IMG/VR virus record: IMGVR_UViG_2639762982_000007
Strand: one strand, 5' to 3'
DNA length: 10,978 bases
Source of the DNA: a virus
Lineage: Duplodnaviria; Heunggongvirae; Uroviricota; Caudoviricetes
The notes under the pieces were generated by a model. That model was not told the origin of the DNA. It saw only the letters and a list, made by a program, of their open reading frames with translations, and ran no database searches. Shown piece by piece: positions 1-6,331 of this stretch (the first letter of the stretch is position 1; each line of letters starts with the position of its first letter). The translations under genes were made by a program, and so were the position numbers.

Positions 1-232
1 GTTCACCGAATACGTGCGCAACAACCGTCTTCCGGAGCCTGTCATACGCGTAAAACAGCCAGCGCTGGCGCGATTTAGCCCCGACATAGCCCCACTGTTC
101 GTCCATTTCCGCGCAGACGATGACGTCACTGCCCGGCTGTATGCGCGAGGTTACCGACTGCGGCCTGAGTTTTTTAAGTGACGTAAAATCGTGTTGAGGC
201 CAACGCCCATAATGCGGGCAGTTGCCCAGCAT
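1..232 (-). CDS. insB: IS1 InsB transposase frame, partial (made as InsAB' by -1 frameshift); runs off window start
   Basis: Reverse-strand translation of 1..60 gives [19 protein letters not shown], an internal InsB segment. The upper boundary of about 232 is inferred from IS1 architecture, not precisely determined. Confidence 0.65.
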
Positions 233-426
233 CCAACGCCATTCATGGCCATATCAATGATTTTCTGGTGCGTACCGGGTTGAGAAGCGGTGTAAGTGAA
301 CTGCAGTTGCCATGTTTTACGGCAGTGAGAGCAGAGATAGCGCTGATGTCCGGCGATGCTTTTGCCGTTACGCACCACCCCGTCAGTAGCTGAACAGGAG
401 GGACAGCTGATAGAAACAGAAGCCAC
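151..426 (-). CDS. insA: IS1 InsA transposition regulator (91 aa)
   Basis: ORF-track protein [40 protein letters not shown]... matches IS1 InsA. The start lies 55 nt inside the IS1 end, as expected. Confidence 0.9.
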
Positions 427-481
427 TGGAGCACCTCAAAAACACCATCATACACTAAATCAGTAAGTTGGCAGCATCACC

Positions 482-723
482 TGAATAGAAGTGGAAAAAG
501 AAAATCATCTATTGCAGGTAATTTTACTAAATTAGGTGAGGCAATTACCTCGAGTGGGCAGAGGGTTTTTGGTGGTGATCTATCAAATGTAAATTTTTAC
601 GGAACAAATACGATTTTTGATGGAGATACAATATTTTTAATTAAATCACCTGATTCAGAGGAGTGGTCATCACAAAAAGCTTCCAAAGACGTAGAGGGCA
701 TCGTATTTGGAGGGAAAAAATGA
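482..723 (+). pseudogene. 3' fragment of an unknown gene truncated by the IS1 insertion (80 codons, no start codon)
   Basis: Frame beginning at 481 is open for 80 codons (LNRSGKRKSSIAGNFTKLGEAITSSGQRVFGGDLSNVNFYGTNTIFDGDTIFLIKSPDSEEWSSQKASKDVEGIVFGGKK) up to TGA at 721..723. It contains no ATG/GTG/TTG and abuts the IS1 end. So long an open frame is unlikely by chance in AT-rich DNA. Confidence 0.4.
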
Positions 724-1148
724 TTAACATTACTACTAAGGATGGCACTCAAGTCAGTGGTGAAGTAAGAGATCTAGTAATTCTTCTTGAAACTGATGGA
801 AAAACGGTGTCTGATTATTTGCAGCCAATCCCTCCCAAAAAAGATACACACTGGAGCATGATTTTCATTCCGGTAGCAATTTATATACTACTTAATCTTG
901 TATACATTATTGCTCACCCATTATTTCCTGAAAAATATCTAAAAACATCAACATCTATATTTCTATTCATTTCCTTCATATTAAGTGCAATAGTAGCATA
1001 TTTTGTTTTCCATAAGCATAAATCTGCCACTCTATCCATATGCAGCTTAGTGTTCTTAGTGTTAATTGTAGGTGCTAACGTAGGGTTTATCAGTTACAGC
1101 GACCTAACACAAAAAGCGACGCAAAAATTAGATAGTTTGTCTAAATAA
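720..1148 (+). CDS. small predicted membrane protein (about 142 aa, three hydrophobic segments), unknown function
   Basis: ATG at 720 is preceded by GGAGGG (709..714) and overlaps the upstream stop in an ATGA (720..723). The protein MINITTKDG... has a hydrophilic N-terminal ~45 aa followed by three hydrophobic stretches. The ORF-track start at 663 is a GTG without a ribosome-binding site. Region is AT-rich. Confidence 0.5.
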   Translation: MINITTKDGTQVSGEVRDLVILLETDGKTVSDYLQPIPPKKDTHWSMIFIPVAIYILLNLVYIIAHPLFPEKYLKTSTSIFLFISFILSAIVAYFVFHKHKSATLSICSLVFLVLIVGANVGFISYSDLTQKATQKLDSLSK

Positions 1149-1226
1149 TTATGTTGCCATGCGAAGTATGCATGGCTGCATGTCTGCCTTCCATTTAAAA
1201 TGGGCTAAGACCTATAACCCTAAATA

Positions 1227-1940
1227 TTATTCTTTATTATCTTCTTTACCACTTCGCACCATCCCGTTCGACTTGTTGCGGTTGTACTTCGCCTGAAGCA
1301 GCTGGATTGGCGTCGGGCCATGCTCGGCAGCCGGTGCTGCAATCGCCCGGCGCACAGGCGGTACTGGTTTGCCCTCGGTGACGCGCCTCTCCCACATGTC
1401 CAGCAGATCGCCGGCTTCACGCGCCAGCTCACCATGCGTTAACTGGCGCTCTGTGCTGCGGTGGCGCAGTTCGACGCAGATGTGGTACATGACAGGCTGT
1501 GACCACGGGAAATGCTCGCTGGAAGTGAATTCGAAGGAACGATTACGCCAATCCCAGTATTCGGTTATGACTTGGTCAACAGTGATACCTAACGCCCCGC
1601 CACTCTGCTTACACCACGCTACGAACTGGCCGGGCGACGGCAGGAATGGTCGATTCTGCCGACGGGCTACGCGCATTCCAGCGTTAACCTGTTCCATTGT
1701 GGTGATCCCGTTTTCCCGGAAAGCCAGAACCCACTGGCGGCGAATTTCGTTCAGTTCGTTCTGGTCACGGTTAGCCAGGCTCGCAGGGAAAGTTGCCAGC
1801 AACTGGCTGAATACACCGTTGATGATCTGCGCTACCTGCTGTACCTGCGGCTTTTCGTCGTACTGTTCCGGCATGTTGTTGGCGATCCGGCGCATCTGCT
1901 CACGGTCAAAGTTAATCATCTGTGCGGCGATGTTTTTCAT
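1227..1940 (-). CDS. P: lambda P-family replication protein (helicase loader), divergent C-terminal half
   Basis: From the internal Met, MKNIAAQMINFDREQMRRIANNMPEQYDEKPQVQQVAQIINGVFSQLLATFPASLANRDQNELNEIRRQW... matches the lambda P N-terminus from memory. ATG at 1940 overlaps the O stop (ATGA). The ORF-track start at 2045 is an upstream extension overlapping O. Confidence 0.85.
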   Translation of the reverse strand: MKNIAAQMINFDREQMRRIANNMPEQYDEKPQVQQVAQIINGVFSQLLATFPASLANRDQNELNEIRRQWVLAFRENGITTMEQVNAGMRVARRQNRPFLPSPGQFVAWCKQSGGALGITVDQVITEYWDWRNRSFEFTSSEHFPWSQPVMYHICVELRHRSTERQLTHGELAREAGDLLDMWERRVTEGKPVPPVRRAIAAPAAEHGPTPIQLLQAKYNRNKSNGMVRSGKEDNKE

Positions 1941-2952: not shown

Positions 2953-3498
2953 TCATATTGCCCCCAGCATGGTGGTGACCATCGCCATCAGTGGACCAGC
3001 CAAATCCGGGTCCACACGAAACATCGACACAATGCCTTCACTCATCTCCTTCAGTTTCTGGTGGCGTGGTGCGTTGAGAATGACAGCCTGTTTTGCCTCA
3101 CTGAGTTCCTTTTCCATTTCAGCCAGCCGAGCCATGAAGCTATCCTGCTCAACCAGGTGGCCGCGATATTCCAGCGGTAGTACCGCCAGAATTGCCGGGG
3201 TCAATTCACGCACGTTATTTCGGTATTTTTCAGAATCGAATTTGTTATCGAGGAAGCGGAACAGCTTCTGGCGTGCACGGCTGACATCATCAGGGAAATC
3301 GATGGTGCCGCCGCCCTGCTCCCGATACTCATTCACAATGAGTGCGGCAACGACATCCTGATTATCTACAGCCGACCAGGCGCGGACGGCATCACGGATT
3401 TTTTCGTGGCCTGGAGCTTGTTTTGTTTGAGAACGATTTATCACCGCAGTCGGGCTAAATCCGCTAGTCTGTTGGTATGTAAGTGGTTGCATAGTCAT
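2953..3498 (-). CDS. YdaT-family protein, likely CII-analogous early regulator
   Basis: Lies between the cro-like gene and O in the rightward early operon. Motifs NEYREQGGG and LTPAILAVLP resemble Rac prophage YdaT as I recall it. Start may be the second ATG at 3492, which has better ribosome-binding-site spacing. Confidence 0.65.
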   Translation of the reverse strand: MTMQPLTYQQTSGFSPTAVINRSQTKQAPGHEKIRDAVRAWSAVDNQDVVAALIVNEYREQGGGTIDFPDDVSRARQKLFRFLDNKFDSEKYRNNVRELTPAILAVLPLEYRGHLVEQDSFMARLAEMEKELSEAKQAVILNAPRHQKLKEMSEGIVSMFRVDPDLAGPLMAMVTTMLGAI

Positions 3499-3522: not shown

Positions 3523-3750
3523 TTAGGCGGCAGAATTACTCGCGTTAAACAATGGTGCGAGGTCGGGACGAATATCTGCTGGTTTAATCTTTCCACCAGT
3601 GGCTGAGACAATTTTCATTACATAGCGGGCATCAATTCCGCCACCGTGTAGCCAACGCCAAACTGTGGGTTGGGCTACACCGCATAGATCTGCCAGTCGT
3701 TTTTGACTACCTGTAATACTGATTGCGAGTTGAATGGTTTGATTTGTCAT
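3523..3750 (-). CDS. Cro-like helix-turn-helix repressor (YdaS/Cro family, about 75 aa)
   Basis: Divergent from the repressor gene. Helix-turn-helix signature QKRLADLCGVAQPTVWRW. ATG at 3750 has a GGA site 7 nt upstream; the track start at 3756 is TTG. Confidence 0.75.
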   Translation of the reverse strand: MTNQTIQLAISITGSQKRLADLCGVAQPTVWRWLHGGGIDARYVMKIVSATGGKIKPADIRPDLAPLFNASNSAA

Positions 3751-3860
3751 TATCAATTCCTATTGGTATTGCAATGAATGAATAATAGCAATGAGTATTA
3801 ATCCAAGCAATAGCAAAACGTGTTTTGACCATCAATACGCAAGCGTATAAATTAAAACTT
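3751..3860. promoter_or_regulatory. OR-like divergent operator/promoter region (PR leftward, PRM rightward)
   Basis: Intergenic between the divergent cro-like and cI genes. AATAGCAA(T) motif at 3784..3792 and 3809..3816 (25-bp spacing). Candidate PR on minus strand: -35 TTGCTT (plus 3805..3810), 17-bp spacer, -10 TATTAT (plus 3782..3787). Candidate PRM on plus strand: -35 TTGACC 3825..3830, -10 near 3846..3852. Confidence 0.55.
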
Positions 3861-4553
3861 ATGAAAAAAGAAACTCTTGCTGATCGCTTAAATCTAGCGA
3901 TGGAACAATCTGGAATGTCTCAAGGCGCTCTTGCAAAGGCGTCTGGCGTAGCTCAACCCACAATCTGGAGACTGACAAGCGGCAACGCGCGCGGCTCAAC
4001 AAAAATTGTTGAAATAGCTAATGCATTGGGTGTTCGAACAGAATGGCTCTCTTCAGGCATAGGCCCGATGAGAAATGACGGTCAACAATCAGGGAAGCCT
4101 GCTGTCAGCCATTCCAAATACTTCAAAATTGACGTTCTTGATATAGAAGTCAGTGCCGGGCCGGGTGTAATCAACCGTGAGTTTGTAGAAGTTCTACGCT
4201 CGGTTGAATACTCGTTTGACGATGCTCGTCACATGTTCGATGGCAGGAAGGCGGAAAATATCCGCATCATTAACGTGCGTGGTGACAGCATGTCAGGAAC
4301 GATCGAACCAGGTGATCTGCTGTTCGTTGATATCACGGTTAAATCTTTCGACGGTGATGGTATCTATGCGTTTCTGTATGACGACACCGCCCATGTAAAA
4401 CGCCTGCAAATGATGAAGGATAAGCTGCTGGTTATCTCTGATAACAAGAGCTACTCACCGTGGGACCCGATCGAGAAAGACGAGATGAACCGCGTGTTCA
4501 TCTTCGGGAAAGTCATCGGGAGCATGCCGCAGACATATAGAAAGCATGGGTAG
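3861..4553 (+). CDS. cI: CI-type prophage repressor: N-terminal helix-turn-helix plus C-terminal LexA-like S24 autopeptidase (230 aa)
   Basis: Helix-turn-helix MSQGALAKASGVAQPTIWRL. S24 motifs GDSM (catalytic Ser) and HVKRL (Lys). The track start at 3825 is TTG; the first ATG is 3861 with no ribosome-binding site, consistent with a leaderless PRM transcript as in lambda. Confidence 0.85.
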   Translation: MKKETLADRLNLAMEQSGMSQGALAKASGVAQPTIWRLTSGNARGSTKIVEIANALGVRTEWLSSGIGPMRNDGQQSGKPAVSHSKYFKIDVLDIEVSAGPGVINREFVEVLRSVEYSFDDARHMFDGRKAENIRIINVRGDSMSGTIEPGDLLFVDITVKSFDGDGIYAFLYDDTAHVKRLQMMKDKLLVISDNKSYSPWDPIEKDEMNRVFIFGKVIGSMPQTYRKHG

Positions 4554-4682
4554 AAATCAGAACAAAATTATGCACTTCGCTTTTCAGCTTACTGTAGTAA
4601 GGCAATAAATTAGGCTTGACGTTAGCTATCAGGTGCACAACAATAATTGTTGAATAATAGGTTTTTTTAACTAGGTGATAAC

Positions 4683-5822
4683 ATGGCAGCGGTTGAATTT
4701 CAATTGTCTAGGAAGATGATTGATTGGATAGCAAATTCTCAAGGAGTTTCTATCGAAACTCTTGCTGACCAAGTCATGCCCAAAAAGATTAATAAATTTC
4801 TTAACGGAGTGGTAAGTAAATCCGCAGCAGAAAAACTGGCAAAAATTGGAGGAATCCCTTTCGGTTTTTTATTTCTTGAAACGCCACCAACTCCAGCCAA
4901 ACCCAAGATCCCTGACTTAAGGCAAGCTATAAATAGCCGTGAGTTAGGAAAAGATTTTTTTGATGTTTACTATGATATAGAATATAAACTTGAGTGGTAC
5001 AAAGACTATTTAAGAGAAAATGGTAATGATGATCCACTCGATTTTATTGGTAAATTTAAATTTAATAGAAAATTAAATTATAAGGTTGTTGCTACAGACA
5101 TAGCAAACACAATACATTTTGATATACAAAAAGAGATAAAAAATGTCACTTTTGAGAGCTATTTTTCTAAAGTGGCAAAACTAATAGAAGACACTGGCGT
5201 ATTAGTTTTCAAGAATGGTGTTGTGGGTAATAATAATAAAAGAAAACTTGACACGCGAGAGTTTCGTGGTTTCTGTATATCTGATAGCGTTGCTCCGATC
5301 ATTTTTGTAAATAGCTCGGACGCGTTATCTGCGCAGGTATTTACATTATTTCATGAGGTGGCTCATCTTTGGCTTGGAGTCGATGGAGTCTCTGGGTGGG
5401 ACACAGAAAAAAACATAGAATCTTTTTGTAATAAAGTTGCTGCTGAAATCTTAATGCCTGATAATCTCTTCAAATCTTTCTGGCTTAATGCATCCAGCGA
5501 TAATAATTATTATCGAGTAAAAGAGGTTTCTAAGTTATTTAAGGTTAGTGATTTCGCTTGTGCAATCAAAGCGTTACAATTAGATTTGATAGAAAGAAAC
5601 ACTTTGGAGATAATTAAAGATCAAGCTTACAATAAGCCCAAAAAAGAATCCAATGGTGGTTCTTTCTTTAACACATTACCTGTTCGTAACAGTCCAAAAC
5701 TTACGAATATAATAATTTCCAAAGCAATGTCTCAACAATTACCATTAAGGGAAGCAGGCGTACTGCTAAATGTAAAAGCAGATACAGTTGTTGAATTTTA
5801 TAAAAAACGAGAATCTCTATGA
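4683..5822 (+). CDS. ImmA/IrrE-family (M78, COG2856-type) zinc metallopeptidase with helix-turn-helix-like N-terminal domain (379 aa)
   Basis: HEXXH at residues 224..228 (FTLFHEVAHLWLG) followed by the family-typical downstream motif NKVAAEILMPDNLF. N-terminal ~70 aa helical and helix-turn-helix-like. AGGTGA ribosome-binding site 4 nt upstream. Markedly AT-rich relative to neighbours. Confidence 0.8.
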   Translation: MAAVEFQLSRKMIDWIANSQGVSIETLADQVMPKKINKFLNGVVSKSAAEKLAKIGGIPFGFLFLETPPTPAKPKIPDLRQAINSRELGKDFFDVYYDIEYKLEWYKDYLRENGNDDPLDFIGKFKFNRKLNYKVVATDIANTIHFDIQKEIKNVTFESYFSKVAKLIEDTGVLVFKNGVVGNNNKRKLDTREFRGFCISDSVAPIIFVNSSDALSAQVFTLFHEVAHLWLGVDGVSGWDTEKNIESFCNKVAAEILMPDNLFKSFWLNASSDNNYYRVKEVSKLFKVSDFACAIKALQLDLIERNTLEIIKDQAYNKPKKESNGGSFFNTLPVRNSPKLTNIIISKAMSQQLPLREAGVLLNVKADTVVEFYKKRESL

Positions 5823-6331
5823 TTCATAATGGAAAATTCTTAATTGATAGTAATGTCTTCATAGAGGCAAAAAACTTTGCATATAACTTCAATTATTGCA
5901 AAATATTTTGGGATTTTCTTCTCGCTTTACACATTAATGGTCTGATTTATAGCATTAATGCTGTAAAAAAAGAACTATGTGCAAAAGATGATCCATTGTG
6001 TAAATGGATTAAAGAAGAGTTACCATCATCATTCTTCGAAGATGAGCATAGTTCAATAGAAAATTATGCAAAGTTAATAAATTGGTCAACTAAATTAGAT
6101 GTTACCGAAAAGGCAAAGTTTGATTTTGCAAGCCATGAAAAAGCAGATGCTTTTTTAATAGCCCATGCGATGACACATGGATATACTATTATTACCCATG
6201 AGAAACCATCCGGTGGCAAACCTAAAAAAAGAATAATGATCCCGGATGCTGCTGCTTCTCACGGCGTTAAGACATTAACACTATATGAATTTCTTCCAAG
6301 ATACGCTAGTCATAATTTTTCTTTGAAATAA
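5819..6331 (+). CDS. PIN-like putative nuclease (DUF4411-like), 170 aa; candidate effector/toxin
   Basis: N-terminus FLIDSNVFIEAKNFAYNF...FWDFL has the PIN-type first strand with conserved acidic residue and resembles DUF4411 proteins as I recall them. Start overlaps the upstream stop (ATGA 5819..5822). Same AT-rich composition as the upstream gene. Confidence 0.65.
   Translation: MIHNGKFLIDSNVFIEAKNFAYNFNYCKIFWDFLLALHINGLIYSINAVKKELCAKDDPLCKWIKEELPSSFFEDEHSSIENYAKLINWSTKLDVTEKAKFDFASHEKADAFLIAHAMTHGYTIITHEKPSGGKPKKRIMIPDAAASHGVKTLTLYEFLPRYASHNFSLK

Follow-up and report, generated by a model that had tools for sequence, protein, structure and literature searches.

What is the short AT-rich region that lies between an IS1 element and the replication gene P of a prophage, and could it still be active? 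The region is part of a window of 10,978 nucleotides (nt), the whole stretch of DNA analysed here, which is the IMG/VR record IMGVR_UViG_2639762982_000007 of a virus of the Caudoviricetes. At positions 482-1148 it carries the 3′ remnant of a gene that will be called A and, overlapping its end, an intact gene B for a small membrane protein. Set beside uninterrupted relatives, the region reads as a self-contained cassette of two genes, horizontally mobile, in a copy that IS1 has inactivated. Its full description, anatomy included, would be that of an IS1-inactivated pair made of a soluble sensor or regulator and a membrane effector, most likely serving phage exclusion; we consider this whole statement about evenly balanced between right and wrong. 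Taken alone, the functional claim, prophage-borne phage exclusion or abortive infection, is the most likely of the roles envisaged and is put forward tentatively. The following features concern the insertion and the two genes (aa, amino acids; bp, base pairs).

1..481, minus strand: partial IS1, cut by the left edge of the window; CV839-06, which matches with one mismatch, is annotated with an IS1A transposase here
151-426, minus strand: InsA-like open reading frame (ORF) from the ORF list, reading leftward, away from the cassette
459-481: IS1 terminal inverted repeat, the sequence ending ...cagtaagttggcagcatcacc at 481
482..490: right-hand copy of a 9-bp target-site duplication, TGAATAGAA; CV839-06 has the same 9 bp at both IS1 ends
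484..723, plus strand: 3′ remnant of gene A, codons 47-125 and the stop codon, from translation (WP_000182282.1, PHROG 18061)
709..714, plus strand: Shine-Dalgarno sequence GGAGGG for B, within the 3′ end of A and 5 nt (715-719) before the ATG
720..723, plus strand: ATGA start/stop overlap of the two genes (ATG of B at 720-722, TGA of A at 721-723)
720..1148, plus strand: gene B, intact, a 142-aa membrane protein from translation (WP_000608370.1, PHROG 16940)

The left boundary of the region has the properties of an IS1 end: a terminal inverted repeat, which we take to be IRL, an InsA frame, and a target-site duplication of 9 bp (the IS1 norm is 8-10 bp, usually 9). In CV839-06, which differs from the window at a single one of 7,226 bases, a complete IS1 is found inside gene A and both halves of A are present, the first 46 codons standing beyond the far IS1 end. 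The uninterrupted allele reads actTTGAATAGAAGTgga across the insertion site. Since the duplication flanks the element at either end and codons 1-46 of A are found beyond it, the interruption of A at codon 46 is a simple insertion by which nothing was deleted. The sequence-only reading of this DNA, in which IS1 had removed the 5′ part of the upstream gene, is corrected on this point: in the window, the first 46 codons and the promoter merely lie past the other IS1 end. The junction between IS1 and A is found in one complete Escherichia coli genome only, and the insertion would be a recent, simple event. Truncated A alleles also occur elsewhere. One E. coli ORF of 97 aa (P0012; L043, 1560-1853) diverges after residue 62, 27 nt from the end of its contig, and many partial A entries of Shigella sonnei lie at contig ends. 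These alleles hint at repeated insertion-sequence hits on the cassette in lineages rich in such elements.

The two IS1 flanks could be joined in silico, as the sequence-only reading had proposed, by means of CV839-06 and of uninterrupted copies. The intact gene A obtained in this way encodes 125 aa (WP_000182282.1; for instance at 5865-6242 of locus L003). It is uninterrupted in 45 of the 46 E. coli carriers, and both genes are annotated in the uropathogenic E. coli (UPEC) strain 536 and in strain A7, as WP_000182282.1 (125 aa) and WP_000608370.1 (142 aa). In the window, the frame from 481 is free of stops for 80 codons and ends with the TGA at 721-723. At 34% GC, the chance of such a frame is estimated at about 0.002 (stop frequency of about 0.073 per codon), and homology identifies it as a real gene. 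Because the remnant has no in-frame ATG, GTG or TTG, it would not be translatable alone.

Intact A matches PHROG 18061 over its full length in a profile comparison (9.3e-85 over 1-125 of 125). An exhaustive profile search with A gave 109 cluster representatives, nearly all of 120-135 aa and aligned from end to end. The conserved positions are Y10, L22, G39, F84-x-G-T-N, K100, which is invariant, W107 and D115. The protein is basic: the median pI of the family is 8.8 and the E. coli value 9.5. Because the intact protein has 125 aa and is matched end to end by a family of 120-135 aa, A represents a complete family of small proteins, and not the fragment of a larger toxin. A is described as a soluble protein with a predicted alpha/beta make-up. 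A candidate with another architecture was rejected: in P0013 (127 aa; L004, 1-340) a pentapeptide-repeat N-terminus is fused to the 48 C-terminal residues of A, with an abrupt break at position 341 of this 1,145-bp metagenome contig of 1.65x coverage. The ORF is a probable assembly artefact, even though the two parts meet precisely at a DLSNVNF-like stretch that they share.

These properties of A bear directly on the model that had been drawn from the remnant. According to it, the open frame would encode the C-terminal end of a larger protein, a toxin or enzyme domain, the 5′ part of whose gene was lost to IS1, and B would be an orphaned immunity gene. The layout, in which a small membrane ORF is coupled to the end of an open frame, agrees with this model, under which B would have to neutralize A, and a colicin-like/immunity pair is found in the same slot of the Enterobacteriaceae prophage L041, described below. 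However, intact A has only 125 aa with its own start and its own upstream region, the members of its family uniformly have 120-135 aa, and IS1 made a simple insertion with duplication of its target and no deletion. Neither a large protein with a C-terminal toxin nor a toxin or enzyme domain is found: Pfam, NCBIfam and the PDB gave no toxin domain, and no delivery domain is present in any of the 23 loci analysed for the pair. The model is effectively refuted by the reconstruction, and we regard it as highly improbable. The absence of a toxin-like domain from the reconstructed gene is the very outcome that the sequence-only reading had named as speaking against its toxin/immunity version. The profile searches and structure predictions it had suggested, carried out with intact A and B, gave no toxin domain and models of low confidence. 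Of its proposal of a toxin/immunity or superinfection-exclusion pair, the exclusion part stays plausible, while the toxin/immunity part falls with a 125-aa A that has no toxin domain.

What that reading had stated at the level of the sequence all holds, namely the 80-codon frame, the ATGA overlap and the 142-aa ORF with a good ribosome-binding site. Through the ATGA, the two genes of the cassette are translationally coupled; purine-rich A-B junctions are present in distant loci too. The segment 482-1226 shows 0 mismatches with strain A7, and B is identical to the alleles found in IS1-free prophages. B matches PHROG 16940 over its full length (2.3e-96 over 1-142 of 142). Its organization is as follows.

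720..827, plus strand: soluble N-terminal segment of B (aa 1-36), conserved in alignments; net charge -3 here, family mean -2.4
855-923, 948-1016 and 1026-1094, plus strand: three transmembrane (TM) helices in B, roughly at aa 46-68, 77-99 and 103-125, from hydropathy and AlphaFold2

Hydropathy and the AlphaFold2 model agree with the earlier description of a small three-helix membrane protein, an organization that is conserved across phyla. A lack of conservation of the membrane ORF, which would have spoken against that description, is clearly not the case. In the model (predicted local distance difference test, pLDDT, 68), an N-terminal segment made of a beta-hairpin and a helix is followed by long helices at 44-68, 71-100 and 103-141. 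The N-terminal segment carries the family motif K-x-G-x-x-EGTPEE...F..NGL...Y..P. The TM2-TM3 loop is basic and conserved (HKHK here, R-F-K in the family; loop charge +1.57). This positive loop favours an N-in orientation; the C-tail is Lys-rich too, and the acidic N-terminal segment could be translocated.

IS1 insertions are classically polar. Here IS1 puts 768 bp between B and its putative promoter, and the transcription of the element itself points away from B. Because the insertion splits A and deprives B of both promoter and translational coupling, B probably stays silent in this copy despite being intact, and the cassette is most probably inactive. B keeps its own Shine-Dalgarno sequence and could be translated if a fortuitous transcript were provided. 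The earlier idea that a possibly orphaned immunity-like gene remains is therefore hard to maintain, a B that has lost its promoter and its coupling being probably no functioning orphan.

That A and B form a unit is indicated by distant relatives. Metagenomes, contigs of viruses and genomes of named organisms supplied loci with A homologues at about 20-45% identity. Wherever the downstream sequence was long enough, in 23 of 23 loci, a B-like ORF of 121-154 aa comes after A, in which three hydrophobic segments are recognized in 22 loci and two, at the chosen threshold, in the remaining one. The partners are homologous to B, as judged from the acidic N-terminal motif, a W-x-x-I-P at the start of TM1, an R-F-K before TM3 and a P-x-E after TM3. 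The two genes overlap by 4 nt in 17 of the 23 loci, are separated by 1-4 nt in five, and by 45 nt in L030, a betaproteobacterial metagenome-assembled genome (5998-6843) where A is apparently truncated (111 aa) and B extended (154 aa), and which may contain a decaying copy. No third conserved gene recurs around the A-B loci. The carriers belong to nine phylum-level lineages (Pseudomonadota, Nitrospirota, Thermodesulfobacteriota, Acidobacteriota, Cyanobacteriota, Myxococcota, Omnitrophota, Saganbacteria and Bacteroidota), close homologues of A and B being restricted to the Enterobacteriaceae. Between the E. coli copies and those of Klebsiella and Enterobacter, the ratio of non-synonymous to synonymous substitutions (dN/dS) is 0.08-0.13 for both genes, these values being approximate as dS is saturated. 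On these data A and B are co-inherited and under purifying selection. Each of them is present on at least 1,000 contigs, Shigella sonnei included, and all public sources call them hypothetical.

In E. coli, the 745-bp segment 482-1226 is found in 46 of 5,426 complete genomes (at least 99% identity). It is absent from deposited phage genomes (megablast, INPHARED), and prophages and metagenomes are the only known sources of the module. In the Enterobacteriaceae it always resides in lambdoid prophages, antisense to the lytic genes, between the replication and the nin genes. The nin side is ybcN/NinB or DUF1367-NinE, whereas the replication module varies (O/P, DnaB-type or DnaC/IstB-type). In lambda, the counterpart slot holds ren. 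With such a position the cassette is a moron of enterobacterial lambdoid prophages. The right boundary in the window contains the following features.

1151..1220: intergenic spacer between the convergent genes, containing a pair of stable hairpins (RNA folds; z of -2.6 for the plus and -3.0 for the minus strand)
1156-1176: hairpin GCCATGC-7-GCATGGC, directly 3′ of the stop codon of B
1202-1220: hairpin GGGCTA-7-TAACCC, terminator-like on the P strand
1227..1940, minus strand: replication gene P, boundary of the cassette and outside it, annotated as replication protein P in matching records

B and P are convergent, with a spacer of 78 nt, and the GC content is 34.2% for 482-1148 as against 52.2% for P and O; the pair was rightly described as AT-rich foreign DNA, convergent with P and outside the replication operon. 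A -10-like box lies 35-40 nt upstream of the ATG of A; it reads TATACT in E. coli, while the other species have TATAGT with a TG before it. A cross-species alignment shows that the box is kept although the flanking sequence diverges.

The surroundings of other copies may also be considered. In L041, a prophage of the Enterobacteriaceae (GCA_030132385.1), positions 3665-5348 encode a protein of 377 aa that weakly matches the colicin pore-forming domain, and hold a convergent 174-aa colicin-immunity-like gene; this pair adjoins the A-B module in the same P-nin slot. Since these genes stand beside the module, the P-nin slot would be a hotspot for accessory genes, among which L041 suggests conflict genes. 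Elsewhere, the module is located in a temperate phage between integrase and lysis genes (L008), in an island rich in toxin-antitoxin (TA) genes with BrnA, HigB-like/HTH and Hypoth_Ymh (L012), and in a variable region downstream of smc-zipA-ligA, adjoining an Xre-MbcA antitoxin (L005). Four integrases are counted among the flanks.

Which function may be proposed for such a pair? Exclusion or abortive infection is suggested by analogy with RexAB of lambda, a system that shuts out superinfecting phages by way of a lost membrane potential. Like rexA and rexB, the two genes are prophage-borne, antisense to the lytic genes, accessory and dispensable, with a soluble gene first and a polytopic inner-membrane gene second. 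Thus the RexAB-type layout, a prophage pair of a soluble and a polytopic membrane protein, is found here as regards genes and position, expression in the lysogen being presumed. B (142 aa) has the size of RexB (143-144 aa), whereas A (125 aa) is much shorter than RexA (278-279 aa). RexB has four TM helices as against three in B, and rexAB lies beside cI whereas the cassette occupies the P-nin slot with its own putative promoter. A comparable logic is that of gp30 and gp31 of mycobacteriophage Butters, a cytoplasmic and a multi-pass membrane protein which the prophage expresses and which exclude heterotypic phages. They belong to a different phylum and to different families, and the likeness is one of description. 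In short, the layout resembles those of RexAB, CptAB and Butters gp30/31, and the pair is a member of none of these systems.

On this analogy, the cassette would be transcribed from its own promoter, the conserved TATACT/TATAGT box, and one messenger would give A and B at a fixed ratio. The two proteins would form a complex in which the soluble sensor or regulator A triggers the membrane effector B. Upon detection of an infection by A, B would perturb the inner membrane, leading either to a Rex-like abortive infection or to a block of entry. In the present copy, IS1 would part B from the promoter and from the coupling, probably leaving the cassette non-functional.

Several observations weigh against exclusion as the function. 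The physical interaction between A and B is deduced solely from their coupling and co-inheritance. A scan for sigma-70 promoters lists none upstream of A, the box having only a resemblance to the consensus. Homology with the Rex proteins was considered and rejected, the hhalign probabilities being 0.08% for A with RexA and 0.55% for B with RexB, with no Pfam match above threshold. When 91 members of the A and B families were compared with the 5,027 models of PADLOC v2.0.0, only 2 matches, at chance level, were obtained. The secondary structure predicted for A, alpha-beta-beta-alpha-beta-beta-alpha, comes with a model of low confidence (pLDDT 55), and fold searches returned generic weak matches only, which are uninformative. 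Under the positive-inside rule, the charges of B leave its orientation ambiguous, the segment before TM1 and loop 2 having 2.96 Lys and Arg residues as compared to 3.48 in loop 1 and the C-tail. The searchable literature contains nothing on either protein or on the family, function included. Finally, many chromosomal copies are flanked by ordinary housekeeping genes. About 10 of 145 flanking ORFs (22 loci) match PADLOC models, a modest figure and a raw count without a background rate; they comprise a DrmD-like SNF2 helicase (L019), PDC-M49A (L023), BrxA, BrxB, PD-Lambda-3_B, SoFic, mad3 and three PDC-S families. Such a neighbourhood of defence genes speaks in favour of exclusion, yet is suggestive only.

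The main rival to exclusion is a toxin-antitoxin or addiction module, in which B would be a small membrane-damaging toxin and A would neutralize it, either by binding the protein or at the level of its mRNA. In this version, the cassette would serve to stabilize its mobile element, and phage defence would come second, if it existed at all; SdhE/YgfX (CptB/CptA) and GhoS/GhoT may serve for comparison. In both of these systems two small proteins are encoded bicistronically, the upstream one soluble and the downstream one residing in the inner membrane, and the A-B pair, with its two small genes, its 4-nt overlap and its soluble gene first, has the same appearance. Its patchy spread over nine phyla beside unrelated genes also recalls TA cassettes, and the copies located among TA genes (L012) and near the Xre-MbcA antitoxin (L005) point in the same direction. 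A polar IS1 hit in A that also silences B is a knockout tolerable for a TA locus. However, no TA family of Pfam or NCBIfam is matched, although the models would include Cpta_toxin, Sdh5, GhoS and GhoT. In addition, B is larger than GhoT, and its most conserved part is the soluble N-terminal segment, which would be unusual for a simple membrane-lytic toxin. According to Pfam, A also lacks the DNA-binding domain typical of type II antitoxins. A TA function, whether with direct neutralization of B or as a stabilizer of the carrier element, is considered unlikely.

It may also be imagined that the pair has a role in the phage life cycle or in the host membrane, either as a holin/antiholin system that controls the timing of lysis or as a pair involved in membrane stress, transport or anchoring. 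With its small size, its three TM helices and its Lys-rich, charged C-terminal tail, B is reminiscent of class I holins such as lambda S105; the many chromosomal copies among housekeeping genes and the weak defence-island signal agree with a role of this kind. On the other hand, the enterobacterial cassette is located about 4 kb from the lysis genes essD-rrrD-rzpD and on the strand opposite to all lytic genes, as expected of a gene expressed in the lysogen. A holin or antiholin belongs within a lysis cassette, with the endolysin and spanin genes, whereas B lies outside it and carries an extra conserved N-terminal domain of 35 aa. Moreover, no holin family of Pfam is matched, the cassette is dispensable, since most lambdoid prophages lack it (46 of 5426 E. 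coli genomes carry it), and its distribution across phyla is patchy. Such a role appears rather improbable.

Searches for families of known function were negative for the pair. With E. coli A and B, no match above threshold was obtained in Pfam, NCBIfam or PADLOC, and none at E<=1 in the latter. Pfam gave nothing above threshold with 63 relatives of A and 23 relatives of B either, and the sub-threshold matches of B (7TMR-DISM_7TM and others) are driven by hydrophobic bias. Profile searches of the PDB with A and B gave nothing significant. PHROG 18061 and PHROG 16940 are both annotated as 'unknown function', and the pairing of A with B, as well as its breadth beyond enterobacterial prophages, is undescribed in the searchable literature. 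One may wonder whether the exclusion proposed above would correspond to a new anti-phage system extending across phyla, where a 125-aa sensor of a new fold gates a three-helix effector through the conserved N-terminal domain of the latter. It would be a minimal RexAB analogue, non-homologous to the catalogued defence families, which E. coli, Shigella, Klebsiella and Enterobacter harbour in their lambdoid prophages; this reading is possible, if doubtful, and we advance it with reserve.

The remainder of the window contains other accessory genes. At 4683-6331 (plus strand), just beyond the cI-like repressor gene, a second accessory pair is encoded: a 379-aa ImmA/IrrE metallopeptidase, which matches CapP of PADLOC (9.8e-15) and RmrA of RosmerTA (about 6e-8), has its gene overlapping by 4 nt that of a 170-aa DUF4411 protein. 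In UPEC 536, the same slot is occupied by a different pair, a 353-aa hypothetical protein and an ASCH-domain protein. A protein with a YdaT toxin domain is encoded at 2953-3498 (minus strand), in a cII-like position upstream of O, and an orphan Dam-like DNA methyltransferase (PADLOC oMTase, 8e-32) at 9008-9565 (plus strand), downstream of the exo gene (8177-8857). At 10703-10772 (minus strand), a full-length match to the Rfam family RNA-OUT (RF00240, 98.8 bits, E 3.5e-20) indicates an IS10/Tn10 end at the right edge of the window; the prophage segment thus has IS1 on its left, nin-proximal side and IS10 on its right.

As an ordinary and most probably dead copy, the present locus carries little weight alone. 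Nevertheless, its naturally IS1-disrupted form in CV839-06 is a ready negative control, and the locus exposes a family whose interest is broader, a reasonable candidate for a defence or TA system that would be new: a compact module of about 0.8 kb, under strong purifying selection, that moves among nine phyla and their phages. The module is common in prophages of clinically relevant Enterobacteriaceae, where it has no annotation, domain, structure or literature attached to it. Should the pair be a TA module, it would provide a new family of membrane toxins. Should it exclude phages, a very small sensor-effector system would be added to the catalogue of defences, and its presence would help to explain the resistance patterns of lysogens in UPEC, enterotoxigenic E. 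coli and Shigella.

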